This document shows, one piece after another, positions 5,963 to 47,191 of a stretch of DNA of 48,155 nt. Below the pieces are notes generated by a model, which saw only the letters and a program-made list of their open reading frames with translations, was not told the origin of the DNA and did not search any database. The DNA comes from an uncultured Candidatus Saccharibacteria bacterium (GTDB taxonomy: Bacteria; Patescibacteriota; Minisyncoccia; Phycocordibacterales; DATDWN01). The DNA lies in NCBI GenBank assembly GCA_964597675.1, contig CAZQYV010000001.1, positions 10,903 through 59,057 of the forward strand, read 5' to 3'. Numbering within the stretch: the first letter of the stretch is position 1; every line of letters starts with the position of its first letter. The position numbers and the translations under genes are program-made.

Positions 5963-6454
5963 ATGAGGATACTTTCTATTGACCCAGGGTATGAACGACT
6001 TGGTATTGCAATCATAGAAAAAGAACTAAAACAAAAGGAGGTTTTGCTATACTCTGCATGTTTTAAAACTAGTGCACGAATACCCCACCACGAGCGCCTT
6101 GTGTTTATTGGTGATGAAATAAAGAAAATAATAAAAAAATATAAACCAACAGCACTGGCGACTGAAAAATTATTTTTTAGTAAAAACCAAAAAACTGCCC
6201 TATTGGTAGCAGAAGCCCGTGGGGTGATTTTGTACACAGCGAGTGAGGCAGGACTTTCGGTCTTTGAATATACACCTGCAGATATAAAAATAGCAGTGAC
6301 AGGGTATGGTAGAAGTGAAAAGAGACAGATTATTGATATGGTTAAAAAGTTAATTGTTGTCACTTCAAAAACAAATTCGGATGATGAATTTGATGCAATC
6401 GCTATTGGACTAACTCATTTCGCCATCAACCGACCCAGTAAAGTGGAAAAGTAA
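5963..6454 (+). CDS. ruvC: Holliday junction resolvase RuvC
   Basis: The true start is MRILSIDPGYERLGIAIIE at 5963. The track ORF 5780..6454 carries an upstream extension overlapping yebC. 163 aa, with a C-terminal DEFDAIAIGLTH motif. Confidence 0.9.
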   Translation: MRILSIDPGYERLGIAIIEKELKQKEVLLYSACFKTSARIPHHERLVFIGDEIKKIIKKYKPTALATEKLFFSKNQKTALLVAEARGVILYTASEAGLSVFEYTPADIKIAVTGYGRSEKRQIIDMVKKLIVVTSKTNSDDEFDAIAIGLTHFAINRPSKVEK

Positions 6455-6576
6455 AAAACCTCATTGAGCAAGTTGTTTTGGGAGACTTCGCAAGGCCGAC
6501 GGGCCGAGACTTGAGAAATTTTTCAGCAGAAAAATATTCGTGCTCCCAAAACAACTTGGTGAAAAAGAGGTTTTTT
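6453..6576 (+). repeat. Structured intergenic element, type A copy 1
   Basis: Outer helix AAAAAACCTC (6453-6462) pairs with GAGGTTTTTT (6567-6576). Closing helix AGTTGTTTTGGGAG (6471-6484) pairs with CTCCCAAAACAACT (6543-6556). Core: ACTTCGCAAG-GGCC GACG GGCC-GAGACTTGAG-GAAATTTTTC AGCA GAAAAATATTC-GTG. It begins at the ruvC stop codon. Confidence 0.85.
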
Positions 6577-6685
6577 ACTTTTCCACAAAAGCCCTATTTG
6601 CAAAAAAATTATAATCTGGTACAAATATGGAAAATCTATCAAACATTGTTTGGAGATGGTATTACAAGACATTTAAAATATATCT

Positions 6686-13590: not shown

Positions 13591-13600
13591 TCACCCCCCT

Positions 13601-16310: not shown

Positions 16311-16312
16311 AA

Positions 16313-17182: not shown

Positions 17183-17185
17183 ATA

Positions 17186-18208: not shown

Positions 18209-18272
18209 TACTAGTATTGTACCATACCACTCTCTTCTCACTACAATTTTTATACACAATTATTAAAAAATC

Positions 18273-18398
18273 ACAAAACTCTTGGCTCGGTATACCTTTT
18301 TTAGAGCACGGATAAATCGTTGCTACGATTTTCCTCAAGTCTCGTGCCGTCGCACTTGCGAAGTCTCCAAAAAAGGTACACCTACGCCGTAGTTTTGT
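18273..18398 (-). repeat. Structured intergenic element, type A copy 2 (sense = minus strand), inside the T4SS-like operon
   Basis: Minus-strand read: ACAAAACT-ACGGCGTA-GGTGTACCTTTTTTGGAG-ACTTCGCAAG-TGC GACG GCA-CGAGACTTGAG-GAAAATCGT AGCA ACGATTTATCC-GTG-CTCTAAAAAAGGTATACC-GAGCCAAG-AGTTTTGT. It starts 10 nt after the virB4-like stop. Confidence 0.85.
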
Positions 18399-18408
18399 GA
18401 GCAAAATA

Positions 18409-20223: not shown

Positions 20224-20227
20224 GATA

Positions 20228-20863: not shown

Positions 20864-20912
20864 GAGACAATTATAACAGATATTTATAAATTAAAACATA
20901 AATACGAAAATT

Positions 20913-21347
20913 TTACCGTGTATGTGTGCCATCATCTCTTGTAACCGGGTTTGTGTTTTCATTTATATCGAGGTTCCACGACAATTCTTTTAATTTACTC
21001 TCGGATAATCGTGGTACAAACACTTGAGCAGGTTCTGCTTTTTCTGCTTCTTTATGTTCAGGTTTTCGTTCTTGTTTTTTCCAGATATAGAGACGGTCTT
21101 TTGTGTAATATAAAAATCCAGCTTCAAGAAAGTCTATAAACGGCTTGTTGTTGACCTTATAAAATGCCAAAGCAAGCGAAAGTGCGGCGAGAGCCCCAAT
21201 AATAAAAATAGAGATAATGAATGGTAGAAATCGATAGGCAAGGAAAATAAGTCCTGCTCCCCCAGCCAGGTAAATGAACTGTTTGACGGTCAGTGGGCCG
21301 ATGACTTTGTCCTCTATCTCAATAAATTGTGGTACTTGGTATCGCAT
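20913..21347 (-). CDS. PrgI-family (VirB3-like) membrane protein
   Basis: MRYQVPQFIEIEDKVIGPLTVKQFIYL followed by two TM helices. Size is 144 aa, and it lies immediately upstream of the VirB4-type genes. Confidence 0.7.
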   Translation of the reverse strand: MRYQVPQFIEIEDKVIGPLTVKQFIYLAGGAGLIFLAYRFLPFIISIFIIGALAALSLALAFYKVNNKPFIDFLEAGFLYYTKDRLYIWKKQERKPEHKEAEKAEPAQVFVPRLSESKLKELSWNLDINENTNPVTRDDGTHTR

Positions 21348-21348
21348 A

Positions 21349-22569: not shown

Positions 22570-22571
22570 AT

Positions 22572-24959
22572 TTATGTCCAATATCCAACTTCAGCTGGTT
22601 GGCTAATATATGCTTTGTGTGCTGCCTGACTTGCATATGGTGCGGCCGTGTTATTTATAACTGCGATAATCTCATCAATTTCAGCTTGGTCTAGATCCCC
22701 GTTTGCTTTCAAATCACGTAAATGTGGAACCGAAAGCCTCTTAATAACTTCTGGATTCTTAATTGCATCAGAAGAAAGGTTTCTAGCCTGTTTTGCTGGT
22801 AGTTTAGGTCCTTTCCCACCAACTGGCCCAATAAGCGTATCAAGTGTTGCTCCTGGTGTAGGTCCTGTACTGCCAGTAGGAATTGTAGGAAGTGAAAGTT
22901 TATTAATATCATCAATAGCTTGTTTGAATTTTTGTTTTCCTTCAGCCTCTCTTTCTTCTTTTTCTGTTTTTTCACGTTCCTCTTGTGAAAGTGATGCTCG
23001 CATTTTATTTCTCAAATCTGTTCCATCAGTTGCATTTTTGACTTTCAGTGGGTCTGCAGGGAGTTTAGATACCTCCTGATCAAGTGCCACACGGTTACGC
23101 GCAGATAATTTTTCATATATAAACTGTTGATCTTTTTCCTCATCGATTTTAGCAAATTCCTCAGCAAAAGCAGTTTGGTTATTTTTGTTTCGGCGAATAA
23201 CAGCCTCCAATTGGTCTTCTCGAGACAAACCTTCACGCATTTTCTTAATAATTTCGTTCCCAGCATCTCCAGGATTTTGTTTTGCTACCTCTCGCTCAAA
23301 TGCATCACGCTCACGAGGTGACAATTTTTCGTATATATATTTTTGTGCAGCACGCTCGCGACCAATAACATCAGTACTTGTAAGATATGTCGCCAAAACT
23401 TCTGGCTTATTTCGATATTTTTTAAGCACCACATCCCCCTCCTTTTTCTTCTTTTCAAGTTTTCTTTCCTTAATACCAGCAATACCACCTTCAGCAAATT
23501 TTTCATTAAATGGAATACCTTTACCTAAATTAACTCCTGTTTGTTTCTGTATCTGTTCACCAACCGAACTGCGTCTCAAATCAAAAGTTGATTCATTCCC
23601 TTTTTTCGCAGTCTTAAGAAGTGCTCGTGCACCAAGTCCTTTAAAACCACTTCCTGTGGCAGCGGCTTCCTGTAATTTTTTATTTTCAGCAATCAGTCCG
23701 GCACCTCTTCCAACCGTGTTTCGGAGTACCCCACCAGCAACACCACCCATAAGTACCCCACCCGCAGCCGCAGTGAGCCAATTTGTGGCGGTACCAAGCA
23801 TACTCGATCCCGCTGTTGCGTATTTTTTTGCCATGCTAATAGACATGATTACAAGTCCAAGCACTACTGCAAGATTTATAACAAGCACAATATTTGCACC
23901 TTTTCCGTTGACCAAGCCCGCCCATCCGGATATATCATTTGTACGAGGAATTATGCCTGTCGCAAGGACAAGTGTCACCCATGTCATAAACATGTAGATT
24001 GGGCCAAAGAGACATTGTCCCATAAGAGTTTTCCACCAATCACTTTGAGATGATTTAATAGAAGGAAACGCATATCCCATAAAAGCAATCGGCGAAAGAA
24101 CCATGAGAATTATAAGGGTAATATACCGAATAAGAAACATGGCACTGACTGCAATAAACGCAATTGCAACGGTTAGAAAGATAAGTGCTCCAAATAAGAC
24201 TAAAATGATACGTGATGTTCTTCCTCCATCTGAAAGATCTCCCGCCACTTTGTTAATTGAATCTTTTCTAAAAAAAGATGTCACATCTAATGTATTCATA
24301 AATGCACTTGAGAGTCCCCCTGTATTTTTATCAAGTGCAATCCCAGTACCACTCGAGTCTTTATTATCAATAGTGGTTGTTAGATCTGCGTTTGTGCCAC
24401 TGACTATTGATTTATAGAAGCCAATCGTAACAATATTTGATGCATCTATAATTACTTTTGTGACAAGGAGACTAAAGTTGAGAAGAAGTGATGTGAGGAT
24501 AATACCAATAACCAATTTTTTTGCATCCCCCCCTAACCCGAGTATTTTCTTCATCCCTTCAAAAATAAGAAGGAATATGAATCCGATATTCATGAGGTCT
24601 CGCATAACCACCCAAACCGTTTTTATACCCTCAATTTTATTTATATTGTCAGAAAATGTAACAACAGTGATTTCTATTACTTTATCGAGGAGGTATCCTG
24701 ACGCCCAGAGAAGCAAACTCATAAGCTGTAATATGAGGTATGCAAAGGGTAGTATAATTCCAGTCAGAATATTATCCCATGCAAAACCAACAAGAGTACC
24801 TCCATACTGCTTGAAAAAAGATTGCCCAGGAAGAAGATTGTCCTTTACTGTTTCGGCTACACTTGGTGGGGTTGCGGGTGTCTGTCCATACACCACAAAA
24901 GGCGAGAAAATCGCCAAGAGGAGAACAAAAATGGTGATGTAAGAGAAAACTTTTTTCAT
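22572..24959 (-). CDS. Large polytopic VirB6/TrbL-like membrane protein with long charged C-terminal tail
   Basis: 795 aa. N-terminal signal/TM and multiple TM helices over roughly aa 60-400 (e.g. IILVLFGALIFLTVAIAFIAVSAMFLIRYITLIILMVLSPIAFMGYAF). The ~370-aa hydrophilic tail contains a tandem repeat (QKYIYEKLSPRERDAFEREV / QQFIYEKLSARNRVALDQEV). Confidence 0.65.
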   Translation of the reverse strand: MKKVFSYITIFVLLLAIFSPFVVYGQTPATPPSVAETVKDNLLPGQSFFKQYGGTLVGFAWDNILTGIILPFAYLILQLMSLLLWASGYLLDKVIEITVVTFSDNINKIEGIKTVWVVMRDLMNIGFIFLLIFEGMKKILGLGGDAKKLVIGIILTSLLLNFSLLVTKVIIDASNIVTIGFYKSIVSGTNADLTTTIDNKDSSGTGIALDKNTGGLSSAFMNTLDVTSFFRKDSINKVAGDLSDGGRTSRIILVLFGALIFLTVAIAFIAVSAMFLIRYITLIILMVLSPIAFMGYAFPSIKSSQSDWWKTLMGQCLFGPIYMFMTWVTLVLATGIIPRTNDISGWAGLVNGKGANIVLVINLAVVLGLVIMSISMAKKYATAGSSMLGTATNWLTAAAGGVLMGGVAGGVLRNTVGRGAGLIAENKKLQEAAATGSGFKGLGARALLKTAKKGNESTFDLRRSSVGEQIQKQTGVNLGKGIPFNEKFAEGGIAGIKERKLEKKKKEGDVVLKKYRNKPEVLATYLTSTDVIGRERAAQKYIYEKLSPRERDAFEREVAKQNPGDAGNEIIKKMREGLSREDQLEAVIRRNKNNQTAFAEEFAKIDEEKDQQFIYEKLSARNRVALDQEVSKLPADPLKVKNATDGTDLRNKMRASLSQEEREKTEKEEREAEGKQKFKQAIDDINKLSLPTIPTGSTGPTPGATLDTLIGPVGGKGPKLPAKQARNLSSDAIKNPEVIKRLSVPHLRDLKANGDLDQAEIDEIIAVINNTAAPYASQAAHKAYISQPAEVGYWT

Positions 24960-24965
24960 GAAATC

Positions 24966-26282
24966 CTATGGGGTTAGTGGTGTTGTGCTTGTCGATGAAT
25001 CATTATATCTATCAGCATATTTCTTTGTTTGAGCGTCAACCTCCTGATCTGTTGGTGGTGTATATACTGGCTGTAATAATTCGACTGGTGTGCTCGATGC
25101 GACTAAATCTCTATTTTTTAAATCTTCACTCGTACTTTCTGGAGATCCGTTTGCCATTTTTTCGATAAGTGATCGTGATGCATTGTCAGCAACACTTTTC
25201 TCTGTGGCACCCTTGAGTCCATTACCGATTCCACCAACGACCATTTGGAAGAGTTGTGTCATCAGGGCACTGACAATTTGGTTTATATCATTAACCAACT
25301 CGAGTTGTGTGACTGAACTACCGATAACTTTATTAAGTTGTGTACCAATAACACTGCCTGGTGTAACCGCTTCCTTGTCCCCTGGTGCACAATCTCCTTG
25401 TCCGAGGCCACTATCAATATATTCAACAGTTGTTTTGTATTTTTTACATTGAGGAGGATTTTTAGTAAAGTCGACTTGCCCCTCTTCACACTCTGTTGTA
25501 GGTGTGGCTGTCAGCTGTCCACTACCCGTCAAGGTTGCTCCTTTTTTACATCTTTCAAATGATAAAAAACCTAGACCACGATTGAGTTGGTCATCATATT
25601 TTTTATTTTGGCTACCAATTTGGACATCAAGGTCACTCTGGGCGTTGATGAGGGCTCCAAACGGGTTGTTCTGGCTATTTTGAGTCATACTAAACCACCC
25701 TTCCCATCCACCCTCATCAAAATTTTTCATAAAAGCATCATAGTTTTTTTCCACGGTCCCAAGTGTACATGCATATTGTGTTTGATCATTGAGATAATTT
25801 TTTGCTAAAGCAAGTCTCACTTGTGCACGAAAAGGTGTACAGAGTTTATTGAGCGCAGAGTTTTCTGACAGCATTTTTGCGGCAACCGTATCCCCAACAT
25901 TGAGGAAAAATTGGTTTGGATCGGTCACAAAGGCAGGATTTCCTTTGAAACCGCTGTTTACCCAGTTGACTGTTTGTGCGGTGATACCACGGATAATTTG
26001 TCGAGCAACAAAAATAGCCAGTGGCTTGCCAATAAATTCTTTTATATTAAGTGTTGTTTGATTTGTGGCGCTAACTACTGTCGCTGGGGCAATTGCACCA
26101 AGGAGAACAGAATTAAGAGCATGGGAACCAGCATTAAAAAGATCAGCAACAGGCAAAAGAGGAATAATAGCTTCTGTTTTTTTTGGTGCTGTAAAAAAGA
26201 AAAGTGGAACGATGAGGAGTATAAAAAGTAAAGCTGATCCAATACGTTTCTTTGATCGTTGTGTATAGTCAAATAGAGGCAT
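24966..26282 (-). CDS. Membrane-anchored/secreted protein of unknown function (T4SS-like cluster)
   Basis: ATG 26282 (MPLFDY...) or GTG 26306. TM helix ALLFILLIVPLFFF followed by a large extracytoplasmic domain with several Cys. 6 nt separate it from the VirB6-like gene. Confidence 0.6.
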   Translation of the reverse strand: MPLFDYTQRSKKRIGSALLFILLIVPLFFFTAPKKTEAIIPLLPVADLFNAGSHALNSVLLGAIAPATVVSATNQTTLNIKEFIGKPLAIFVARQIIRGITAQTVNWVNSGFKGNPAFVTDPNQFFLNVGDTVAAKMLSENSALNKLCTPFRAQVRLALAKNYLNDQTQYACTLGTVEKNYDAFMKNFDEGGWEGWFSMTQNSQNNPFGALINAQSDLDVQIGSQNKKYDDQLNRGLGFLSFERCKKGATLTGSGQLTATPTTECEEGQVDFTKNPPQCKKYKTTVEYIDSGLGQGDCAPGDKEAVTPGSVIGTQLNKVIGSSVTQLELVNDINQIVSALMTQLFQMVVGGIGNGLKGATEKSVADNASRSLIEKMANGSPESTSEDLKNRDLVASSTPVELLQPVYTPPTDQEVDAQTKKYADRYNDSSTSTTPLTP

Positions 26283-26352
26283 GGTAGTGTCTATAGTATA
26301 CACCACCTACTGCAATAAAAACTAGCAATTCTGTTGAAAAGTTTTAGGAAAA

Positions 26353-27162
26353 TTATTGTTTTGAGCGAAAATACATGTCAAGTTCTTTTAGAGCGGATAC
26401 AATGTCTTGGGCATGTTGGTCATATAGACTTAATGCAGAGAAACTTTTGACAGGATCTGAAAGAGAGAGCCGCAACCCTTGGACATTTGCAAGTATATTT
26501 GAGAGTGAATTGAGATATGCAAGGTGAACATCTACCGCATCATGAGGAATTGTCATTGTTTGGAGGTCTTTGACCATATTTTGTAGTAATACGATAATCG
26601 GATCAAGTTTTTTTAGGTCACTTTCTTTTTCAGATTTGACTGCTCTTTCAACAATTACCTGTACACTTTCATATTTTTCTGTCGAATTTCGTAGCATACT
26701 CTGTGTTAGTGCGTTTCGATATGCTATTACAGTTGCATCGTCACTTTTTGCTGATATACGTAGGTTTTTCTCTGTATAGACAGTACCTGTGGCGTGTGTG
26801 TAGTCCCCTGCTGAAAGGGTACTTTCTACAATAGTTGCTGTATCTGTTTCCGTAATTTGCCCATTTTGGTTTTTCAAAATCAAATACTGGGCCATAAAGT
26901 CTTTTGCAAGTTTACCTGTCAGGGTATTGTCATCTGTACTCGGTGCATTTTCATCACTAACTAGGATAATTGTCCTATCACTACTTGTCGCGTCTGACAA
27001 AAGATCCTGCCAGTTGTAGGTGTTGGTGTTTTTTGTTACTTCAGCAATTATAGAATCGGTGCTTTGGGCACCTTTTGTGCTGAATTTGTGGTCAATAATA
27101 TAGACTGAAGCGATAATACCGAGGCAGACGATCAATACCCCAATAATTTTTTTGCTTGGCAT
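26353..27162 (-). CDS. Single-pass membrane protein of unknown function (first gene of the minus-strand T4SS-like string)
   Basis: 269 aa with TM helix IIGVLIVCLGIIASVYII, then a mostly helical ectodomain. Confidence 0.6.
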   Translation of the reverse strand: MPSKKIIGVLIVCLGIIASVYIIDHKFSTKGAQSTDSIIAEVTKNTNTYNWQDLLSDATSSDRTIILVSDENAPSTDDNTLTGKLAKDFMAQYLILKNQNGQITETDTATIVESTLSAGDYTHATGTVYTEKNLRISAKSDDATVIAYRNALTQSMLRNSTEKYESVQVIVERAVKSEKESDLKKLDPIIVLLQNMVKDLQTMTIPHDAVDVHLAYLNSLSNILANVQGLRLSLSDPVKSFSALSLYDQHAQDIVSALKELDMYFRSKQ

Positions 27163-27205: not shown

Positions 27206-28655
27206 GTGTATCATGAAAAAATTATGTTATGCAATCCTAGGAATTTTATTTATTAGTCTTTGTGTTCCATTTTTTGTAAGTGCAGGGCAACTTGCACCTT
27301 CACCATTTAATGCGGGGGGCCAACTTGACGCTGGTTGGGCAAATATGGGTAGTGGAAAATACTACAATAGTACCCTCGGCATATATTCAAACGCAGACGG
27401 TAGTATTCAGAGTTATACATCAGAGATATTTAGTGCAAGTACACAGGGCAATCAAATACAAACTGTGGCTAGCGAGGATACTATGCAAGGAATTTGTATC
27501 TGGAACAACTATGATAAAACATTTCAGCCAGCAAATGATCAAGTTTTTGCAACCAGGGCCGTTGCAGACCAAATGGCACAGAGATTTGGAGGTACAGTAA
27601 TAGAAATTTATTTGAGTACAGATGGTCCATACAGAACGGTCAATATTTGTGCATTTCCTGCTGGGCAGACAACAATTCTCCAAGAAAATCTTGTACCAGA
27701 ATATACAGTAAAAGTAGGAAATTATCGTGGAAATGCGGCCGCAATCAACCATTTATTCCAAACATACCCATATTCAACAGCGTTTGCCATGGTTAAAGCA
27801 GAAATTGATGCTGCAAATAATACAAGCGGAGGAGGTGGTAGTGGTAACGGTGGAGGAGGGTCAGGCACCGGTGGAGGAACAACACCGCCAGTTATAACAT
27901 CAACACAAGGGGCAGCGGTTGAAGTTAAAATAAAAACAATGGCGCAACGAATGGCCAAAGACTACTTCGATGCATATAACAGAGCATCAGGATTGACTCG
28001 CAATACAACTACGATAGGTGGTTCTGGTGGGTTGCCGACTACTTGTCAGAGATTTGATAACAACTTAAAACTTGGAGATACAGGACCTGATGTATTGGCA
28101 CTAACACAAATATTAAAAATGGAGGGGTTATTGAATGAAACAACTGATACTTTTGATCAGACAGTCTTTCGTGCAGTTGTTCTTTATCAAGAACGCTACG
28201 CAGAAGAAATTTTGGTTCCTGCAGGGCTTACAGCAGGTACGGGTCTTGTAGGTACAAATACTCGAGAGCATTTAAACTCATTATGTGAAGAAGTAGATGA
28301 CACGGATAGTGGATCAGTAGGCAATACGGACCCCGTTGTAAATTTGGTGGTTGGAAATAACAATAAAATAGCAATATATAGTGTTGGAGAGACGATTCCA
28401 TATACTGTCACTATGACAAACGTAAATTCAGTCAGTTCTTTTTACAACACTATTCCAAAGGACACATGCGTCGGTGGTTCAACAAATGGCGAACAGAAAC
28501 CATGGATTGTTAGTTTCCCTGTATCAAACAGCGTTTTATCTGAAACAGTCAAATCATGTCAGGCAGGATCAACATATATCATCAGTGTTATAGGTACAAA
28601 TACAACAACAGGAAAGATTAGTGCATCATCTGTTTCGGTTTACATTAGACCATAG
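27204..28655 (+). CDS. Secreted protein with Gly-rich linker and peptidoglycan-binding (PG_binding_1-like) domain
   Basis: Signal peptide MKKLCYAILGILFISLCVPFFVSA and linker SGGGGSGNGGGGSGTGGGTTPP. The segment LKLGDTGPDVLALTQILKMEGLL...FRAVVLYQERY is a PG-binding repeat. The C-terminal part is beta-rich. Confidence 0.65.
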   Translation: MCIMKKLCYAILGILFISLCVPFFVSAGQLAPSPFNAGGQLDAGWANMGSGKYYNSTLGIYSNADGSIQSYTSEIFSASTQGNQIQTVASEDTMQGICIWNNYDKTFQPANDQVFATRAVADQMAQRFGGTVIEIYLSTDGPYRTVNICAFPAGQTTILQENLVPEYTVKVGNYRGNAAAINHLFQTYPYSTAFAMVKAEIDAANNTSGGGGSGNGGGGSGTGGGTTPPVITSTQGAAVEVKIKTMAQRMAKDYFDAYNRASGLTRNTTTIGGSGGLPTTCQRFDNNLKLGDTGPDVLALTQILKMEGLLNETTDTFDQTVFRAVVLYQERYAEEILVPAGLTAGTGLVGTNTREHLNSLCEEVDDTDSGSVGNTDPVVNLVVGNNNKIAIYSVGETIPYTVTMTNVNSVSSFYNTIPKDTCVGGSTNGEQKPWIVSFPVSNSVLSETVKSCQAGSTYIISVIGTNTTTGKISASSVSVYIRP

Positions 28656-28659
28656 TTTT

Positions 28660-28783
28660 ATAAAATTACAGTGAAGGTGTGTCTTTACCCGAACCTTGCA
28701 CAGGCCGACGGGCCGAGCAGAGCAAAAAGCCAGCAGGCTTTTATGTGTGTGAGGGGAAAGACACACCAAGCCAAGAATTTTAT
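28660..28783 (+). repeat. Structured intergenic element, type B copy 1
   Basis: ATAAAATT-ACAGTGAA-GGTGTGTCTTTACCC-GAACCTTGCACA-GGCC GACG GGCC-GAGCAGAG-CAAAAAGCC AGCA GGCTTTTATG-TGTGTGA-GGGGAAAGACACACC-AAGCCAAG-AATTTTAT. It starts 5 nt after the upstream stop. Confidence 0.85.
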
Positions 28784-28829
28784 AAAACTAGTAGAATAAA
28801 TAAAAACACATCTCTGTCACGAGGTGTTT

Positions 28830-29615
28830 TTATTTAAGATTCGAAAGTAGCGAGAACCATGTATCAATTGATATATCCTCTGCCCTACCATGTATATCTA
28901 TACCTGTTTTTTCAAAAGCAGAAAGTAGTTTCTCTTTCGGATACAGCACAGAAAGATTTGGGAGAAGTTGTTTTCTCTTATGAGCAAAACCTGCATGAAT
29001 TAAATCAAAAAAATCTTTTTCCTTTACTCCATTAAATCTATTTTTTGATATATTTTTTATGTGTATTACAGCAGAATCAACCGATGGTGATGGTGTAAAT
29101 GCCCCTTTACCAACTGTCCGCACATATGTCGGTATACCGTATGCTTTGATAGAAAGAGAAAGTAAACTTTCTTTTTTATCACGTGTGACAATTCGATCCG
29201 CAACTTCTTTTTGTACCAGAAGCGTAATTGACGCTGGTTGCTTTTTTGACTCCAGAAAATTTCTAATAATTTGTCCCGTAATATAGTACGGTATATTTGC
29301 AATTAATTTATATTCTCCAATATTAAGATGAGATATTTCTAAAAGTAAAATATCATCATGAATGAGAGTAAGTTTTCCCGATGCAATTTCATTAGGAAAT
29401 TTGTCAGACAAAATAGGAATAAGACGATCGTCTTTTTCTACTGCTATAACTTTGGCACCTGTGGCAAGCAATACTGCAGTCAGAGACCCTTCACCTGGTC
29501 CGATTTCCAAAATAGTATCATCGGCAGTAACCCCGCCAGCGACGACAATATCGTTCAAGATATGAGGCGATTTTAAAAAGTTTTGACCGAGTGATTTTTT
29601 TGCTTTAATACTCAT
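28830..29615 (-). CDS. rsmA: 16S rRNA (adenine1518/1519-N6)-dimethyltransferase RsmA/KsgA
   Basis: KKSLGQNFL start motif and SAM-binding EIGPGEGSLT, 261 aa. Confidence 0.9.
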   Translation of the reverse strand: MSIKAKKSLGQNFLKSPHILNDIVVAGGVTADDTILEIGPGEGSLTAVLLATGAKVIAVEKDDRLIPILSDKFPNEIASGKLTLIHDDILLLEISHLNIGEYKLIANIPYYITGQIIRNFLESKKQPASITLLVQKEVADRIVTRDKKESLLSLSIKAYGIPTYVRTVGKGAFTPSPSVDSAVIHIKNISKNRFNGVKEKDFFDLIHAGFAHKRKQLLPNLSVLYPKEKLLSAFEKTGIDIHGRAEDISIDTWFSLLSNLK

Positions 29616-35449: not shown

Positions 35450-35597
35450 GTAAAATTTATTTTTTCGCGCCCCCGCAGTCGCAAAGCATTGTTTCGTCAA
35501 TGACCCGAGTTAAGCGAGGGCTCTTGACGAATTTGCGACGAGGACAGCCGAGAGCTTCGCTGGAAGCTTGAGGGGAGCAAAGAAAAATATCTTTTAC
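35450..35597 (+). repeat. Structured intergenic element, type D (more distant relative of types A-C)
   Basis: GTAAAAT...CGCGCCCC-CGCAGTCGCAAAG...[CGTCAA..CCC..GGG..TTGACG]..TTTGCGAC-GAGGACAGCCGAG-AGCTTC GCTG GAAGCT-TGAG-GGGAGC-AAAGAAAAATAT-CTTTTAC. The 3' end overlaps the pnp stop codon (35594-35596). Confidence 0.6.
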
Positions 35598-37726
35598 TTC
35601 ACTTTATCAAACCACTCCGGATCAATTTCTTTTACCGAGAGTTTCAATCGTCCACGTTCATCAACTTCTTTCACCACAACCGGTACAGTGTCTCCAACTT
35701 TTAGTAATTCATCTACAGTCTTTATTCTTTTTGGAGAAATTTCTGAAATATGAAGCAAACCTTCAGTCCCACCATTAATTCGTACAAAAGCACCAAATTC
35801 TGTTATTTTTACCACTTCACCTCGGAATCTGTCCCCCACTTTTGCTTCCCATGTCATATTTTCTATAATTTTCTTCGTCTCTTCACACCCCTCTTTTTTG
35901 CCAGTAATGTAAACTGTACCGTCGTCTTCAATATCAATTTCTGCTCCCGTTTTCTCTTTGATCTCTTTGATTGTCTTCCCGCCTGTGCCAATAATCAATC
36001 CAATTTGATCTGGCTTGATTGAAATTGAAATAATATGTGGCGCATATTCAGAAATACTCTCACGTGGCGTGGCAATCGCCTCGGTTATGACTTTTAGAAT
36101 TTGTAATCTTGCAATTCTGGCTTTTTCAAATGCTTCTTTCAGGATATGGAGAGGAACTCCGGAAATTTTAACATCCATTTGGACAGCAGTTATCCCTGTT
36201 TCTGTTCCTGCTACTTTGAAATCCATATCGCCATGGTGGTCCTCTGGCCCTTGAATATCTGTCAGGATTACGTAATTTTGATCCTGAGCGGAGTCTACGG
36301 ATCTTGCTTTGCTCGACATCATTAATCCACTTGCAATTCCAGCCACAGGCCGAGCGATCGGCACTCCACCGTCCATTAATGCCAAAGTACCTGCACAGAC
36401 TGATGCCATCGAGGTTGACCCGTTTGAGGCCATCGATTCTGCAACAAGGCGTATTGTGTATGGAAATGCTTCTTTGTTTGGCAGTACTGGGACAAGAGCT
36501 TTTTCAGCTAGTGCTCCATGCCCGACCATTCGGCGATTTGTGCCCCCCATTCTACCCACCTCTCCTGTTGAATATGGCGGAAAGTTGTAGTGGAGCATAA
36601 ATCGCTTATGACCAGATTGAACTTCCATAGTATCTATTAGTTGTGCATCCCCTGGTGCACCAAGTGTTAGTACGGACAGAACATGTGTTCCTCCACGATA
36701 AAACGTGCCTGCCCCGTGCAATATTTTTGAAATTCCACCGACACGTGCAACAAGTGGGCGAATCTCGTCTAGTCCTCTTCCGTCCGGCCGTCTTTTATTT
36801 TGTATAGCTTCTGTATGGATTACCTCATCAATTTTTTCTTGTAACAAATTGTCTGCCTGTGTGGTATCAGTTCCATCTGGCAAGTTTTTGATTTCGTCTT
36901 CCCATATTTCTTCAAGGGCGGTCAAATCACTTTTTCCAGCCGTGCCAGAAAAAACTTTGTCCATCAAAATTGGTTGAATTTTTTCCTCAAATAAAGTCAG
37001 AACCTCTGGCGAGACAGTTGGTTTTGAGACAACAACTTTTTCTTTCCCAATTTCATTTATGATTTGTGTCTGGAAATCTTGCATTTTTGCAAGTTCTTTT
37101 TGGGCCATCTCCATTCCAGCAAGGACAACATCTTCTCCCACCTCACTACTTCCCACTTCAATCATATTTATTTCTTTTCCAGTACCACAGACCAGTAAAT
37201 CCAAAGCATAGGCATCGGTATTTCTCTGTGTGTATGTTGGATTGATTTCGAAATTAGCATTTTTCCCTATTCTAACTGCAGAGACTGGGCCATTCCATGG
37301 AATATGTGATGTACTGAGCGCGATAGATGCTCCGAGGACGGCAAGAATATCAGGATCATCTTCCCCGATGGACAAGACAGTGATAACAACCTGAACATCA
37401 TGTCGAATCCATTGGTCAAACAAGGGTCGAATTGTTCGATCGACGATACGGCCAGAGAGAATTGCTTCGTCTGTTGGCCGTCCCTCACGTTTTTGAAAAC
37501 GGCTACCGAGAATTTTCCCAGTAGCATAAAATTTTTCTTCAAAATCAACAGTCAAAGGAAAAAAATTAGCCCCATCCTTTGCTTGTTTTGACATAACTGC
37601 AGTAGCGAGCACAACAGTATCGCCATATCGTACTAGACATGACCCATGTGCCTGTTCTACCAAGTCACTAAATTCAATCTCAAGTGTTCGTCCACCGTAC
37701 TCTGTCGAAAAAGTTTTTGTTTTCAT
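35594..37726 (-). CDS. pnp: Polyribonucleotide nucleotidyltransferase (PNPase)
   Basis: 710 aa with two RNase PH domains, a KH domain (GLIIGTGGKTIKEIKEKTGAEIDI) and an S1 domain (GDRFRGEVVKITEFGAFV). Confidence 0.95.
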   Translation of the reverse strand: MKTKTFSTEYGGRTLEIEFSDLVEQAHGSCLVRYGDTVVLATAVMSKQAKDGANFFPLTVDFEEKFYATGKILGSRFQKREGRPTDEAILSGRIVDRTIRPLFDQWIRHDVQVVITVLSIGEDDPDILAVLGASIALSTSHIPWNGPVSAVRIGKNANFEINPTYTQRNTDAYALDLLVCGTGKEINMIEVGSSEVGEDVVLAGMEMAQKELAKMQDFQTQIINEIGKEKVVVSKPTVSPEVLTLFEEKIQPILMDKVFSGTAGKSDLTALEEIWEDEIKNLPDGTDTTQADNLLQEKIDEVIHTEAIQNKRRPDGRGLDEIRPLVARVGGISKILHGAGTFYRGGTHVLSVLTLGAPGDAQLIDTMEVQSGHKRFMLHYNFPPYSTGEVGRMGGTNRRMVGHGALAEKALVPVLPNKEAFPYTIRLVAESMASNGSTSMASVCAGTLALMDGGVPIARPVAGIASGLMMSSKARSVDSAQDQNYVILTDIQGPEDHHGDMDFKVAGTETGITAVQMDVKISGVPLHILKEAFEKARIARLQILKVITEAIATPRESISEYAPHIISISIKPDQIGLIIGTGGKTIKEIKEKTGAEIDIEDDGTVYITGKKEGCEETKKIIENMTWEAKVGDRFRGEVVKITEFGAFVRINGGTEGLLHISEISPKRIKTVDELLKVGDTVPVVVKEVDERGRLKLSVKEIDPEWFDKVK

Positions 37727-37772
37727 TCCGTTAAAAATTATTTTATATTCAGATTATTTCGATTCGTAGTCT

Positions 37773-37897
37773 ACAAAATTACGGCGAGATCGTATCTCTT
37801 GTGGAGACTTCGCAAGGCGGGTAGCCGAGACTTGAGCGATTTTTCAGCATAAAAATACGCGTGCTCCACAAGAGATAGGATGAGCCAAGAATTTTGT
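37773..37897 (+). repeat. Structured intergenic element, type A copy 3
   Basis: ACAAAATT-ACGGCGAGATCG-TATCTCTTGTGGAG-ACTTCGCAAG-GCG GGTA GCC-GAGACTTGAG-CGATTTTTC AGCA TAAAAATACG-CGTG-CTCCACAAGAGATA-GGATGAGCCAAG-AATTTTGT. Both flanking genes are on the minus strand. Confidence 0.85.
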
Positions 37898-37910
37898 AAT
37901 GTACAATTAA

Positions 37911-38273
37911 CTAATCATTCATATGCATCTTGCAGGTTTTCGCTGCAGGATTTGCTTCCAAACGGTCACTTTCAATTGGCTGTTTACATGTCTCGCACAT
38001 GCCGTAGGTGGAGTGTTCAATTTTATCCAAGGCAACAATAACCTCATTTAAACGAGTTTCAAGTTGTTCTAAAATTCCTTTGTTGTTCTCATACTCCTCT
38101 ATACCATCTGCGACGACATTTTCATCAGCCGCATCAACATCAATATCTGGCTCTGTTGCCTCCCAATCAGCAGAATTTGCTGGGTTTTTTCTGCCCAATG
38201 TAGCGAGTTCACCCTCTAGTACTTTTTTCTCCTCTTCGAGTAATGACTTAAATTGTTGTGTATTTAATTCCAT
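37911..38273 (-). CDS. DksA/TraR-family C4 zinc-finger protein
   Basis: 120 aa with an acidic coiled-coil N-terminal part and CETCKQPIESDRLEANPAAKTCKMH. Confidence 0.8.
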   Translation of the reverse strand: MELNTQQFKSLLEEEKKVLEGELATLGRKNPANSADWEATEPDIDVDAADENVVADGIEEYENNKGILEQLETRLNEVIVALDKIEHSTYGMCETCKQPIESDRLEANPAAKTCKMHMND

Positions 38274-38304
38274 GGCGACATTATATCACCACACTGTAGC
38301 CCTG

Positions 38305-39213
38305 TCACCTTGTAGTGTGTCCTGTTAGATATTTACCTAGAAGCGCATTAAATATGGCTTCATGCGAGGTAATAAGTATTGTGTTTTTGTCTATAAATGA
38401 ATACAACAAGATAGTTTTTCCTATTTCATCAGTCACAATTCGAAGATCTTTGTTTCGAAGTTCCTCGTCTGTAAAGGTGTATGGTGTGGATGTGCTCCTG
38501 ATACCAAATATTGGGGCAAGATCTGTAACCATCTCTTTTTCCCATGAAAGCATACCCGCGTAGCCAAGGGCCGAGTCTTCGGTAGTCAGAATGATAAATG
38601 GTTCATTTGTACTAAACGAGTATATACCAACCATGTATGGGCTAGTCAGTGTACGAGACAGACTATCTGGCATATGGGGTCCAAATAGACTAGCAACTTT
38701 TCTTGCGGTTGTTCCTGTAGCAGTTGTGCCAGAACCAATGATATTAAAATATAAAACCGAATTTACTGGTTGTTTAAAATCGCGTACACCGAAACGAATA
38801 GTTTCGGCGAATTGTTCATATGACACACTGTCTTGTATTGTTTGACTGTGTGAAAAACTAATTATTGTCTCTTTCTTTATTACCTCAATTTTTTTATTAT
38901 TTTGCGAAACAGAATAATACACTCCACCGATAGCACTAATACCAAGTATGAGTAGTAGTGTACCAACAAGACCGAATAATCTGTTTTTAGCACCAGTAGG
39001 TATAGTGTCTCCTATTTGTGGTTCTGGTTGTGCTAATCGTCTTTTTTGTTCAGCAACAGCAATAGTTGTTATAGAAGTATTAGTATGTGAAATCGCTTCA
39101 GCAACATCACCTTCGTATGTACGAAGTGATTTTAGACGAATATGTTGCTCTGGCGAGACGGATGGAGAATGCTCGCCTTGAGGTTCCTGTGATGGTACAT
39201 TATTTTCTTCCAT
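38305..39213 (-). CDS. Single-pass membrane protein of unknown function (302 aa)
   Basis: About 90-aa cytoplasmic N-terminus, TM helix LFGLVGTLLLILGISAIGGVYY, then about 190 aa extracytoplasmic. Confidence 0.55.
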   Translation of the reverse strand: MEENNVPSQEPQGEHSPSVSPEQHIRLKSLRTYEGDVAEAISHTNTSITTIAVAEQKRRLAQPEPQIGDTIPTGAKNRLFGLVGTLLLILGISAIGGVYYSVSQNNKKIEVIKKETIISFSHSQTIQDSVSYEQFAETIRFGVRDFKQPVNSVLYFNIIGSGTTATGTTARKVASLFGPHMPDSLSRTLTSPYMVGIYSFSTNEPFIILTTEDSALGYAGMLSWEKEMVTDLAPIFGIRSTSTPYTFTDEELRNKDLRIVTDEIGKTILLYSFIDKNTILITSHEAIFNALLGKYLTGHTTR

Positions 39214-39255
39214 ATATTATAAGTGTAACAAAATACAACAAAGGAAAACAAATTT

Positions 39256-39378
39256 ACAAAACAACGGTGAAGGAATATCGTTTTTGGAGACTTCGGAGCT
39301 CGACGGAGCGAGATTGAGCGAATGTCTAGCAAGACATATCGCGTGCTCCAAAAAGGATATTCCGAGCCAGTGTTTTGT
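39256..39378 (+). repeat. Structured intergenic element, type A copy 4
   Basis: ACAAAACA-ACGGTGAA-GGAATATCGTTTTTGGAG-ACTTCGGA-GCTC GACG GAGC-GAGATTGAG-CGAATGTCT AGCA AGACATATCG-CGTG-CTCCAAAAAGGATATTCC-GAGCCAG-TGTTTTGT. Confidence 0.85.
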
Positions 39379-39383
39379 AAGAA

Positions 39384-39935
39384 CTATACATGATCTACTT
39401 GTCCGCGAGGTCGTTTGTTTTGAGGGCGAAAACCGAGTAAATATTTCCGTGGGTTTTCATCCAAATCAATAAAGTCGTCGGAGACCTCGATCAATTTGCT
39501 AGATGATGATTTACCAAAAGACATCACTTCTACCTGACAACCCTCATTCACCTGTAAATATTCTACCAATGGAACAAAGTCGCCATCACCAGAAATAATA
39601 ATCACCGCATCAAGTTTTGGTGCAAGTTTAATCGCATCAACCGCAAGTCCAACATCCCAGTCTGCTTTTTTTGCTCCTCCAGCAAATATTTGGAGGTTTT
39701 TTGTTTTTGTTTCTATTCCCACTTTTTCTAGTGCTTCAAAAAAACTTTTTTCTTCTCCTGATTCTGTGGTGATAACATATGCCACGGCACGAATAAGAGA
39801 TCGTCCCGCTAGACCATCTTTGACCACTTGGTCAAAATTAACTTTTGCACCATATATGTTTTTTGCACAGTGGTAGAGATTTTGCGTATCTATAAAAATA
39901 CCCACGCGCTGATTTTTGTGTTTTATAACTGCCAT
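39384..39935 (-). CDS. NYN-domain (LabA/DUF88-like) predicted ribonuclease
   Basis: RVGIFIDTQNLYH...AVIIISGDGDFVPLVEYLQ...GCQVEVMSF, the typical NYN/LabA acidic-residue pattern. Confidence 0.8.
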   Translation of the reverse strand: MAVIKHKNQRVGIFIDTQNLYHCAKNIYGAKVNFDQVVKDGLAGRSLIRAVAYVITTESGEEKSFFEALEKVGIETKTKNLQIFAGGAKKADWDVGLAVDAIKLAPKLDAVIIISGDGDFVPLVEYLQVNEGCQVEVMSFGKSSSSKLIEVSDDFIDLDENPRKYLLGFRPQNKRPRGQVDHV

Positions 39936-39961
39936 AATAAATAATTAAAATATAAAAATGT

Positions 39962-40085
39962 ACAAAATTACTTACTCAGTATGTCTTTCTCCTCACACAC
40001 ATAAAAGCCTGCTGGCTTTTTGCTCTGCTCGGCCCGTCGGCCTGCGCAAGGTTCGGATAAAAACATACTTTCGCTGTAATTTTGT
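39962..40085 (-). repeat. Structured intergenic element, type B copy 2 (sense = minus strand)
   Basis: The core matches B1 except for one substitution (GCGCA versus GCACA). Closing helix AGTATGTTTTTATCC / GGAGAAAGACATACT. Outer helix ACAAAATTA (39962-39970) / TAATTTTGT (40077-40085). Confidence 0.85.
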
Positions 40086-40171
40086 TATGAAGTGACTCAA
40101 TAAGAAAGAACCTATCAATAAGTATACCAAACAATAGAAAAATAATCGCCTTAAGCGATTATTTTTAGAGA

Positions 40172-40438
40172 TTATTTCTTGAGGCCAAGTTTTTTAATCA
40201 GAACAGCATATCGTTTTGGGAATTTCTTTTCGAGGTATTTTAGATGAGTTTTTCTATCTGCAACCATTTGCAACAGTCCTCGGCGAGAGTGATTATCCTT
40301 AGCATTTTTCTTTAAATGTGAGGCAAGCTCGTCTATTCGCTTGGTCAAGACAGCAATTTGCACCTCAGGAGAGCCAGTATCTGTCTCATGAATCTGAGTT
40401 TCTTTGATAACCTTTGTTTTTTTGGTTTTCGTAAGCAT
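40172..40438 (-). CDS. rpsO: Ribosomal protein S15
   Basis: Start MLTKTKKTKVIKE at 40438. GSPEVQIAVLTKRIDELASHLKKNAKDNHSRRGLLQMV is the S15 signature. Confidence 0.9.
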   Translation of the reverse strand: MLTKTKKTKVIKETQIHETDTGSPEVQIAVLTKRIDELASHLKKNAKDNHSRRGLLQMVADRKTHLKYLEKKFPKRYAVLIKKLGLKK

Positions 40439-40563
40439 TGACACTAGGATAGCATAAAAGATCACTCCATGCAAGGGCTACAGTGTAAATGCCATAATCA
40501 GGTATAAAATCCGCAAAACAGCCACACCGCAGTGTCGCACAATAATTATGATATAATTTACCC

Positions 40564-41496
40564 ATGGCTTCTCTCAAAAAACTTAAACAGCAGTTTCTAG
40601 AGTATATTGAAATCGAAAAGGGTCGCTCGGTAAATACTGTAGAGAATTATGACCGCTACCTCACTCGTTTTTTGGAATATATTAAAAATGATTCTCCTGC
40701 TGATATTACAGATACATCAGTACGGGAGTTTCGACTTTGGCTTAATCGACAGCCACTAAAAAACCTCGGTAAACTGAACGAAACACTAAGCAAAAAAACA
40801 CAGAATTATTATTTGATCGCCATTCGGGCATTTCTCAAATATATGGCACGTCAGGAGGTCAAAACCCTGCCTGCAGAGAGGATTGAGCTTGCAAAAGTAC
40901 AGGAGCGATCTCTAGATTTGATCACTGAGCCAGAATTGAAGCGACTACTGAATGCTCCAAATGGAGATAGTCTCAAGGATTATCGGGATCGTGCTATACT
41001 TGAGCTTCTTTTTTCTACTGGGTTACGTGTGTCAGAGCTATGTTCCCTATCTCGTGATATCGATTTGCACTCCGATGAAATTTCTATTCGTGGTAAAGGA
41101 GGAAAAGTACGAGTGGTTTTTGTTTCTGACAAGGCCAAGAAGGTTGTAAAAGACTATTTATCAAAAAGAAAAGATATGGATGATGCTTTGTTTATAAAAT
41201 TAGCCGAGAATTTGCCTAAAACAATGGGTAGAAAAGGAGAAAATTTGGGCTTAACAAAACGCTCTATCGAGAGGATAGTCAAGGAATTAGCTATTAAAGC
41301 GGGTATATCTAAAAAGGTTACTCCCCATATGATGCGCCATCTTTTTGCTACCGATCTACTTTCCAATGGAGCAGATCTTCGTTCAGTTCAGGCCTTGTTG
41401 GGTCACGCAAATATTGGCACTACCCAGATCTATACACACGTAACCGATAAACATCTCCGTGATGTTCATAAAAAATTTCACAACAAAAGTGAATAA
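40564..41496 (+). CDS. XerC/XerD-type tyrosine recombinase
   Basis: 310 aa with an SAM-like N-domain, R..LLFSTGLRVSEL, and HMMRHLFATDLLSNGADLRSVQALLGHANIGTTQIYTHV (R-H-R-Y catalytic pattern). Confidence 0.85.
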   Translation: MASLKKLKQQFLEYIEIEKGRSVNTVENYDRYLTRFLEYIKNDSPADITDTSVREFRLWLNRQPLKNLGKLNETLSKKTQNYYLIAIRAFLKYMARQEVKTLPAERIELAKVQERSLDLITEPELKRLLNAPNGDSLKDYRDRAILELLFSTGLRVSELCSLSRDIDLHSDEISIRGKGGKVRVVFVSDKAKKVVKDYLSKRKDMDDALFIKLAENLPKTMGRKGENLGLTKRSIERIVKELAIKAGISKKVTPHMMRHLFATDLLSNGADLRSVQALLGHANIGTTQIYTHVTDKHLRDVHKKFHNKSE

Positions 41497-41497
41497 A

Positions 41498-41529
41498 ACA
41501 AAAAACACCCTCTAGAGAGGGTGTTTTTT
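41498..41529. terminator. Bidirectional rho-independent terminator
   Basis: AAAAAA-CACCCTC-TAGA-GAGGGTG-TTTTTT between convergent genes. Confidence 0.8.
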
Positions 41530-41541
41530 GTTATAAGTCTA

Positions 41542-45676: not shown

Positions 45677-45747
45677 CGGGGTGTAGTATAGCGGTAGTAT
45701 TCATGATTTGGGATCATGCGGCCCGAGTTCGATTCTCGGCACCCCGA
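45677..45747 (+). tRNA. tRNA-Pro (anticodon TGG), no encoded CCA
   Basis: Hand fold: CGGGGTG TA GTAT AGCGGTA GTAT T CATGA TTTGGGA TCATG CGGC CCGAG TTCGATT CTCGG CACCCCG A. Confidence 0.85.
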
Positions 45748-45793
45748 CAGATACAGAAGAAACCTCACTCGAGGTTTTTTCTGTATCTGTCGG
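45744..45793 (+). terminator. 23-bp hairpin overlapping the last 4 nt of tRNA-Pro
   Basis: CCGACAGATACAGAAGAAACCTC-ACTC-GAGGTTTTTTCTGTATCTGTCGG, with one G-U. The inner part (AACCTC/GAGGTT followed by a T-run) looks like a terminator. Confidence 0.6.
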
Positions 45794-45903
45794 GAGTGAA
45801 CAAAGTCATAGTATGACTCTGTGTCCGAAATCGAAAAGCGGAGCGGGGCAGGTTTACTTTTTATAGATATTGGTATAATCTTTCGTCAGAAAGGGTTTTT
45901 GTT

Positions 45904-47035: not shown

Positions 47036-47049
47036 ACAAGTATTTAAGG

Positions 47050-47173
47050 ACAAAACCTCTTGCTCAGTACATCTTTTACCTCACACACATAAAAGCCTGC
47101 TGGCTTTTTGCTCTGCTCGGCCCGTCGGCCTGCGCAAGGTTCGTCAAAAGACGTACTTTCGCCAAAGTTTTGT
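47050..47173 (-). repeat. Structured intergenic element, type B copy 3 (sense = minus strand), in tandem with type C copy 2
   Basis: The core is identical to B2. Closing helix AGTACGTCTTTTGAC / GGTAAAAGATGTACT has two G-U pairs on the minus strand only. Outer helix ACAAAAC (47050-47056) / GTTTTGT (47167-47173). Confidence 0.85.
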
Positions 47174-47191
47174 ATAAGAGATGGGAGGAGA

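Follow-up and report, generated by a model that had tools for sequence, protein, structure and literature searches.

Rickettsia palindromic elements (RPEs) are non-coding palindromic hairpin repeats of ~100-150 nt, present in many copies in the reduced genome of a host-dependent bacterium, where they lie between genes and also in frame within them; we know of no transposase for them. [quoted passage not shown] Folded single-stranded DNA (ssDNA) serves as recombination substrate in integron attC sites, CTX-phi attP, the ends of IS200/IS605 and the REP/REPIN-RAYT systems. The genomes of Patescibacteria, or Candidate Phyla Radiation (CPR), are usually called streamlined and poor in mobile DNA. 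We analyzed a stretch of 48,155 nt from an uncultured Candidatus Saccharibacteria bacterium (assembly GCA_964597675.1, contig CAZQYV010000001.1, positions 10,903-59,057 of the forward strand; referred to as the window), in which a preliminary description had noted four copies of a structured repeat with a three-way junction, called type A and named A1 to A4 here. The window carries one element of this kind per ~6-7 kb, and related genomes hold them in an essential gene.

These elements probably form a large, modular superfamily of ~115-265-nt non-coding palindromic repeats that is specific to Patescibacteria, mobile or selfish in nature and non-autonomous, with a junction core acting in cis; the copies are probably not fixed RNA genes. 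The fold is conserved and selected on one strand, orthologous sites have gained and lost copies, insertion occurs just past stop codons in either orientation and can also be in frame within genes, and families recombine into chimeras. The combination of a conserved structured centre with free ends, strand-specific selection and identity across classes is unusual. The family is a tractable case of a repeat that is conserved in its folded junction and not in its termini, and it accounts concretely for some of the lineage-specific insertions in proteins of these organisms, here in mnmA.

By kind and not by sequence, the closest described systems appear to be the RPEs and the structured bacterial MITEs (Correia, ERIC, BOX), with attC-type folded-ssDNA sites as a mechanistic parallel. 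The RPEs, reportedly described by Ogata et al. in 2000 as RPE-1 to RPE-8, resemble the present elements in being palindromic, multi-copy, and both intergenic and in frame (here in the mnmA genes of four genomes, other homologues being empty). However, they belong to a different phylum; the apex found here is a conserved three-way junction with strand-specific tolerance of G:U on top of a copy-specific stem, identical cores recur across CPR classes, and the families are modular and chimeric. The element seems to work like an RPE without being a member of that group, and homology in sequence is unlikely given the phylum.

With MITEs the elements share small size, lack of autonomy, multiple copies, an intergenic position after genes in either orientation, a hairpin that spans the whole element, a modularity like that of BOX, and TA at both ends in about half of the copies. 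The preliminary description had argued against a classic TIR-defined MITE, which is probably right, as conservation is lowest at the termini and highest in the centre; no parent insertion sequence was found among the 40 window open reading frames (ORFs) scanned. Features in common with attC-type sites are the recognition of a folded single strand (proposed here), a stem in which structure counts over sequence, extrahelical or bulged bases, an internal loop near the base, a strand-specific constraint and the position just past stop codons, whereas the apex is conserved here and variable in attC. Of the RYYYAAC/GTTRRRY boxes of integron attC sites only AAC/GTT fits the ends found here (ACAAAAC...GTTTTGT), and there is neither a cassette array nor intI, the copies being scattered in both orientations among housekeeping genes such as ruvC, pnp and rpsO. 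REP/REPIN-RAYT systems have REPs of 20-40 nt with a GTAG/CGTC tag; the unit here is 115-140 nt long with a three-way junction, and no Y1/HUH gene was found among the scanned window ORFs.

Hammerhead and twister-sister ribozymes resemble the element in their three-way junction with conserved junction strands, covarying helices, an arbitrary closing stem and multi-copy occurrence; unlike ribozymes, sense copies are tolerated inside an essential mRNA (mnmA). The core motifs of such ribozymes are absent; CUGANGA, GAAA and UH of the hammerhead, for example, are not in the invariant junction strands (ACUUCG, CGAGAYUUGAG and GUG), and no self-cleaving ribozyme of Rfam matched. Rfam 15 yielded only three tRNAs for the whole window at the gathering threshold, only tRNAs for twelve related loci, and only spurious matches of 13-17 bits for the region 37600-39600 at E<=10, in line with the earlier statement that no known family had been recognized. 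A plain terminator had been discounted as well; an intrinsic terminator has a G+C-rich stem directly followed by a U tract, and a scan for terminator-like sites returned none at A1, A3, A4 or B2 (a type-B copy, see below). A literature search by topic and by sequence string turned up no relevant description, and because the searchable literature is incomplete this is weak evidence that the family is, as it appears, undescribed.

A three-way-junction fold selected on one strand

Copy A3 occupies 37772..37898 on the + strand (TA-CAAAATT...AATTTTG-TA), between pnp (35594-37726, - strand) and a dksA-like gene (37911-38273, - strand), and is antisense to both. It scores 129 bits against a covariance model of 138 positions that was trained on 35 copies. 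The outer helix pairs 37773..37780 (ACAAAATT, + strand) with 37890-37897 (AATTTTGT) and is followed by an internal loop with 37781..37789 (ACGGCGAGA, + strand) on the 5' side and 37882-37889 (GAGCCAAG) on the 3' side, in which GGC pairs with GCC. The closing helix P1 has its 5' arm at 37790..37808 (TCGTATCTCTTGTGGAG plus AC, + strand) and the partner at 37861-37880; the top of this helix, GGAGAC/GUgCUCC, shows no variation across type A. The P2 domain (37813..37834, + strand) consists of P2a (CAAG/CUUG) around P2b (GGC-GGGUA-GCC) with an invariant CGAGA at its 3' side, and the P3 hairpin (37836..37860, + strand; GCGAUUUUU-cAGCAu-AAAAAU(A)CGC) has the AGCA loop and a conserved bulged A at position 37857.

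The four type-A copies were recovered at the positions, on the strands and with the motifs first reported, with model scores of 108-129 bits. Their minimum free energy folds (z = -6.2 to -8.4) contain the outer helix, the purine-rich internal loop, a P1 of 14-18 bp and the three-way junction with two hairpins. The outer helix and the purine-rich loop of the preliminary description were thus reproduced by folding; they do not apply to A1, which is without the ACAAAAY outer helix and without the ACGGYGA/GAGCCARG loop and has AAAAAACCTC/GAGGTTTTTT at its base instead. The opposite strands of A1-A4 fold too (z = -6.5 to -9.4), because any near-palindrome must.

The three-helix structure was evaluated in 35 copies, with 500 column shuffles and slid partners as controls. 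Paired cells amounted to 94.8%, compared to 74.8% in the column shuffles and 39-50% with slid partners, and changes on both sides of a pair were found in 233 cells against 62 in shuffled alignments; the observed value was attained in none of the 500 shuffles. RNAalifold, run on a MAFFT alignment of the 35 copies, predicted 33 pairs, 21 of which have compensatory changes. In P3, both-side changes occur at eight of the ten pairs, P2b covaries within type A, and P2a covaries across subfamilies as judged by eye (CAAG/CUUG, UGC/GCA, AGC/GCU, AGU/ACU, CUCUC/GAGGG). Types A and B, and most of the distant types, retain the bulged A of P3, which is positioned three base pairs from the base of the helix.

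On the element strand, G:U exceeds A:C by 55:7 over all helices (binomial 2e-10) and by 39:6 in P1 plus P3; G:U is present in 28 of 43 copies and A:C in six. Our own count for P1 in a structure-blind alignment gave about 25:2, and the excess also holds for copies that are antisense to their flanking genes (7:2). With G:U far more frequent than A:C on the element strand, selection for folding acts on this strand in particular: the three-way-junction fold is real and strand-specific. The strong covariation of P2b, P3 and P2a and the G:U excess thus support the selected fold of the preliminary description.

Patchy occurrence, turnover and in-frame copies

The discrete functional RNA gene that the preliminary description had implied does not fit the distribution of the copies. 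The covariance model gave seven strong matches (57-129 bits) in the 48-kb window compared to 11 in 797 kb of syntenic relatives, a sample of 80 metagenome loci with cca, an exo/endonuclease-phosphatase gene, xer-like, rpsO, NYN, p302, dksA-like and pnp. In one relative (L073) the spacers measure -3 nt (NYN-p302), 48 nt (p302-dksA) and 20 nt (dksA-pnp), whereas the window counterparts of such spacers have 170-236 nt, which are mostly A4, A3 and B2. Spacers of other relatives are short, unstructured or with a simple hairpin only. No empty A3 site was found at strain level, as nine of nine public contigs with the exact DksA-like protein carry A3. The rpsO to pnp array of the window (35594-40474, - strand) has the NYN gene, a 302-aa ORF (p302) and the dksA-like gene interposed and contains elements in three of its four spacers; the order of this array varies in relatives, many of which read NYN-pnp-p302-dksA.

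With respect to flanking genes, 53 copies were inspected, and sense (++, 11), antisense (--, 16), convergent (+-, 13) and divergent (-+, 9) arrangements all occur; orientation relative to genes is random. Whichever way an element points, it sits directly against the stop codon of the gene upstream, and A3 and A4 are antisense to the rpsO-to-pnp array. Random orientation together with the G:U excess in antisense contexts implies that host transcripts are not what selects the fold. A promoter scan detected no consistent promoter upstream of the copies, and in our own reading seven copies have no consistent strand relative to the direction of the replication fork. The genes dnaN (10669-11769, - strand), dnaA (11994-13445, - strand), rnpA (13499-13942, + strand) and yidC (13948-14679, + strand) lie in the window, and the chromosomal origin is probably near 13.45 kb.

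In-frame copies were found in mnmA. In the contig L031 (mnmA at 4180-5598, - strand) a type-A copy lies in frame between GHY and KDQSYF, with ~43 residues extra compared to E. coli MnmA (PDB 2der). At this hot spot, P0002 (L155, 1501-2775) has a different type-A copy in another reading frame, including a peptide of frame 2 of the type-A consensus, P0005 (L156, 153-1415) has an antisense relative of another subfamily, and P0079 (L157, 301-1638) has an antisense type-A-like copy together with a second, sense copy elsewhere in the gene that has a perfect 25-bp stem. The hot spot is empty in P0003, P0010 and P0043. Altogether, the mnmA homologues span 356 to 472 aa, with up to two in-frame structured palindromes per gene. 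L158 and L159 have empty sites in mnmA, at which no pre-existing palindrome was evident, though both homologues are distant ones. In the type-A consensus one sense frame (…LFWRLRKAGSRDLRNFSAEKYPCSKK…) and one antisense frame are free of stops; the GGGTAG loop gives a stop in another sense frame, and the intragenic copy of L031 reads GGGCAG at this position.

Turnover was observed between the sister metagenome-assembled genome (MAG) contigs L031 (JBCLGS010000001.1) and L160 (JBCLGT010000011.1), which share 96.9% identity across an ungapped 2.1 kb. The two genomes differ in the presence of a 262-nt element between yceG and mnmA, of a four-way-junction element (~100 nt) within the mnmA reading frame and of ~256 nt lying downstream of this gene, and the type-A copy at the hot spot differs in its lower stem and flanks. 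At the yceG-mnmA site the empty allele reads AAATAA/TTTGTTTTCGTG; the filled allele has a palindrome with 28-bp arms, the 5' end of which, AACAAAC, complements the native TTTGTT opposite.

One 65-nt core recurs unchanged in seven copies, which have different stems and come from six MAGs; the labels of these MAGs are Saccharibacteria, Parcubacteria, Zambryskiibacteriota and Minisyncoccia. Among four MAGs of one core subtype, cores are 95-100%, arms 50-67% and outer flanks 20-56% identical; in sets of mixed subtype (the window; JBCLGS) core identity is 70-74%, and it is 70% for type A of the window. Identical cores across classes would mark recent horizontal exchange among CPR lineages, as judged from these sequences. 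Patchiness, empty orthologous spacers, random orientation, in-frame mnmA copies and turnover between genomes of 97% identity do not fit a discrete functional RNA gene.

A scan of a species-representative genome collection with the core pattern GGAGACTTCG-N10-20-CGAGA-N0-1-TTGAG gave matches in 65 stretches, 32 of them with the full core followed by GTGCTC. About 35 of the 65 are titled as Patescibacteria lineages (Parcubacteria/Paceibacterota, Zambryskiibacteriota, Saccharibacteria, Minisyncoccia, 'Patescibacteria group') or as unclassified 'bacterium', and several MAGs have 3-6 matches apiece; the remaining stretches, which lie inside genes of GC-rich genomes of other phyla, look like chance matches. 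In the window itself, GGAGACTTCG has four exact matches, and six if up to one mismatch is allowed, compared to 1.4 expected by chance. The core pattern had no match in the viral contigs scanned, and blastn against phage and plasmid collections gave no match.

Stems, ends and competing explanations

Compensatory variation in the closing helix had been put forward as evidence for RNA selection; it is weak in this respect. Cores that are identical or 97-100% identical carry largely unrelated stems, and the stems have therefore not diverged by slow compensatory substitution in place. Moreover, P3 can covary between subfamilies yet is identical where the stems are unrelated, so that a slow divergence of the stems over the same period is impossible. 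Some copies have perfect stems of 25-29 bp; as seen by eye, L060 and L041 have a consensus-like 5' arm and a 3' arm that is its exact complement and departs from the consensus 3' arm, and L013, L047 and L055 have perfect copy-specific stems too. Many palindromes also run on into copy-specific flanks (as in L001, by 17 bp in L039 and by 10-12 bp in A1), and at the mnmA hot spot and the yceG-mnmA site one side pairs with native sequence, even native codons, opposite. These stem features point to palindrome dynamics at the DNA level. As candidate processes, insertion may hit the centre of a palindrome already present, an inserted element may be extended by snap-back, or a hairpin may have been deleted imprecisely to leave the 'empty' allele.

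Long-form copies end in CAAAAY...RTTTTG, and the common termini comprise only ~8 nt (CAAAAYNC/GNRTTTTG), which are missing from the perfect-stem copies L013, L055 and L047. Identity is 37% in the outer flank compared to 79% in the core. Ends taken from the outermost RNAfold pair over-extend and are unreliable. TA is found at both ends in 14 of 29 copies, among them A1, A3, A4 and B1, and is self-complementary; other flanks are inverted (CA/TG, TT/AA) and not direct. The mnmA junction of L031 fits AG-TA-[element]-TA-AT, and comparison of the filled and empty yceG-mnmA alleles gave no clear target-site duplication. TA may be duplicated in the manner of Tc1/IS630.

Each element is a long hairpin with the conserved three-way junction at its apex, built from the top of P1 (GGAGAC/GUGCUCC), P2 carrying CGAGA, and P3 carrying both an AGCA loop and the bulged A, on a variable, copy-specific stem. 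Under the mobile-repeat reading that we favor, this stem would need only to pair. The junction core may be a cis-acting structure recognized by a putative trans-acting enzyme on a folded single strand, either ssDNA at the fork or a transcript, and templating from arm to arm and extension into the flanks may keep or make the stems complementary. With the core as a cis-acting recognition structure, selection would act on the lineages that propagate and not copy by copy. The copies in residence are probably passengers, with RNA hairpins that may have incidental effects on how mRNAs are processed or terminated. The partner enzyme, once identified, could reveal a new structure-guided mechanism of DNA or RNA mobilization. 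Going further, the family might be a prokaryotic mobile element of a new kind that propagates through a strand-specific folded single strand, with the junction as enzyme recognition site or itself catalytic, enters the centre of AT-rich or palindromic sites, acquires inverted flanks by insertion or snap-back, spreads across CPR classes and remodels proteins in frame; we put this forward as a tentative and rather unlikely extension.

Several points weigh against the elements being mobile repeats. A target-site duplication is not established, because TA is self-complementary and other flanks are inverted, and the exact ends are undefined, because no identical full-length pair of copies was seen. 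No mobilizing enzyme was found: among the 40 window ORFs scanned there were no transposase, reverse transcriptase (RT) or HUH genes, and the sole recombinase is an Xer-like gene of the integrase family that is conserved in synteny. The extreme conservation of the core, including the sequence of the P3 stem, is unusual for a passenger repeat. At the sites in the sister genomes, insertion versus deletion is not polarized by an outgroup. The four type-A copies of the window differ in every helix and still pair, which also fits selection in place on each copy. Finally, the evidence is wholly computational and comes mostly from MAG contigs.

The last but one of these points would be expected if the copies were functional structured RNAs, either trans-acting small RNA genes or cis-acting mRNA elements with a junction that binds a protein or ligand, selected by the host copy by copy. 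Strong covariation, the G:U excess on one strand, invariant junction nucleotides, the bulged A kept across subfamilies and the presence of A3 in all nine public contigs with the identical DksA-like protein agree with this explanation. We nevertheless consider it unlikely, as it has to contend with a patchy distribution and empty orthologous sites, random orientation and the lack of a consistent promoter in the promoter scan, a G:U bias that is kept in copies antisense to their operon, in-frame mnmA copies in both orientations, fast turnover between genomes of 97% identity and identical cores across CPR classes. A more modest role for the host, in which bidirectional hairpins have been exapted as terminators, RNase III sites or 3' stabilizers after stop codons and the core is incidental, would account for the abutting of the upstream stop codon in both orientations and for the strong folding of both strands. 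Outer helices with A runs and T runs (e.g., AAAAAACCTC...GAGGTTTTTT) and T runs after some copies (L060, L083) are likewise compatible with it, and simple long bidirectional terminator palindromes also occur in the genome. However, the terminator scan was negative at the elements, the internal loop separates the U tract from the strong helix, and several copies lie within operon-like arrays such as rpsO-NYN-p302-dksA-pnp, where termination would be harmful; intragenic copies exist as well, and the conserved asymmetric core and the G:U strand bias are left unexplained. We regard this explanation as quite improbable.

Mobility could instead operate at the RNA level, if the core were a new self-cleaving or otherwise catalytic RNA that was reverse-transcribed into DNA, as in retrozymes or hammerhead-bearing repeats. 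A three-way junction in which the junction strands are conserved and the helices covary is an architecture typical of small ribozymes, the constraint concerns one strand whatever the host context, and the family is multi-copy and patchy. A ribozyme-bearing retroelement is nonetheless disfavored, and in our view very unlikely, because sense copies sit in the intact frame of mnmA (L031, L155, L157), where efficient self-cleavage would destroy the mRNA; in addition, no Rfam ribozyme matched even at E<=10, the hammerhead core CUGANGA/GAAA is absent, no RT was found among the 40 scanned window ORFs, and there is no poly-A or other hallmark of retroelements. At the other extreme, the complementarity of the helices could be purely a by-product of DNA-level events (quasi-palindrome correction by template switching, snap-back synthesis), with no selected single-stranded fold at all. 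The perfect copy-specific 25-29-bp stems (L060, L041; also L013, L047, L055) and the palindromes that extend into copy-specific flanks (L039, L001, A1) and native codons at mnmA speak for such events. As the sole explanation this is disfavored and highly improbable: template switching by itself leaves the conserved bulge, the asymmetry of the junction strands and the G:U bias unexplained, since it would erase bulges and internal loops, whereas the bulged A of P3 and the junction strands are kept, and it would not favor G:T over A:C (55:7). Furthermore, the subfamilies show covariation in P2 and P3 with no change at the unpaired nucleotides of the junction.

Further copies and related elements

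All four type-A copies are intergenic. A1 (6443..6586, + strand; core element 6453-6576; 123.5 bits) lies 3' of ruvC with the flanks TA-AAAAACCTC...GAGGTTTTT-TA, and its palindrome, which reaches 6443-6586, takes in the ruvC stop codon. A2 (18271..18400, - strand; 116 bits) is located in sense orientation between the gene of a TraG/VirB4-like ATPase (18409-20289, - strand) and an ORF at 17186-18259 (- strand); the two pairs in its P1 that are not Watson-Crick are G-U on the minus strand, as had been described. A4 (39255..39379, + strand; 108.5 bits) is of the subtype CGGAGCTCGACGGAGCGAGA-TTGAG and lies between p302 (38305-39213, - strand) and the NYN-domain gene (39384-39935, - strand), antisense to both. 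The helix sequences quoted in the preliminary description are correct, with the qualification that the closing helix of A4 contains one G-G mismatch.

The count of four given there is right for type A; the superfamily has at least four more members in the window, which brings the total to at least eight in 48 kb (four of type A, three of type B and one of type C). The type-B copies are B1 (28653-28790, + strand; 57 bits; TA at both ends), B2 (39962-40085, - strand; 58 bits), which lies between rpsO (40172-40474, - strand) and the NYN gene, and B3 (47050-47173, - strand; 57 bits); the model matches themselves run over 28654-28790, 39955-40091 and 47043-47179. Type B shares with type A the lower stem (ACAAAAYN-ACRGYGAR...AGCCAAG), the GGCCGACGGGCC hairpin, the hairpin with the AGCA loop and the bulged A, whereas the top of P1 and the junction strands are different; the three B cores are near-identical to each other. 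The type-C relative (1274-1447, - strand; 41.6 bits; TTTTTTTGAGCCTTTCGCAGG...GATTGCTCCAAAAAAG) has multi-way junctions, and its internal hairpins match those of L035 at 1887-2062. At 4145-4310 there is a long palindrome with a multi-way junction, whose 26-nt arms are 96% complementary and which includes GTTTCGCAAAGG.

The model also matched further copies in other loci, along with longer variants of 176-265 nt that have an extra module (GTGAGAAGTGAT..ATCACTTCGCAAGACCTTGAGC..GGTGTAC..) sited in P2 or P3. These variants are chimeras of different families, and nested forms occur too. Weaker model matches in the metagenome loci reveal a wide superfamily in which the plan is unchanged and the junction strands are different. 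Clustered copies were seen in L005, where an inverted pair (5339-5475, + strand, and 5483-5619, - strand) is separated by 7 nt, and in L047, where three copies lie within 1.7 kb (2820-2960, 3015-3152 and 4348-4484); this suggests insertion beside or into existing copies.

The repeats appear to break metagenome assemblies, because the starts of public contigs of the same species fall inside A4 by window coordinates: L147 and L148 begin 57 nt and L150 begins 76 nt upstream of the p302 start codon. The elements may thereby contribute to contig breaks in CPR MAGs.

Two further features of the window were noted. The gene cluster that contains A2 (~14688-27162, - strand) encodes T4SS pilin-like, TraG/VirB4-like ATPase and PrgI-like proteins together with large ORFs without a Pfam match, and is a type IV secretion-like locus of Patescibacteria. 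Near-perfect palindromes with 16-24-nt arms and 2-8-nt loops are located at 6939-6978, 28797-28836, 41493-41535 and 45743-45794, and look like bidirectional terminators overlapping stop codons. Three of the four have the order A run, stem, loop, stem, T run at gene ends; in the fourth, at 45743-45794, only the 3' arm bears a T run.

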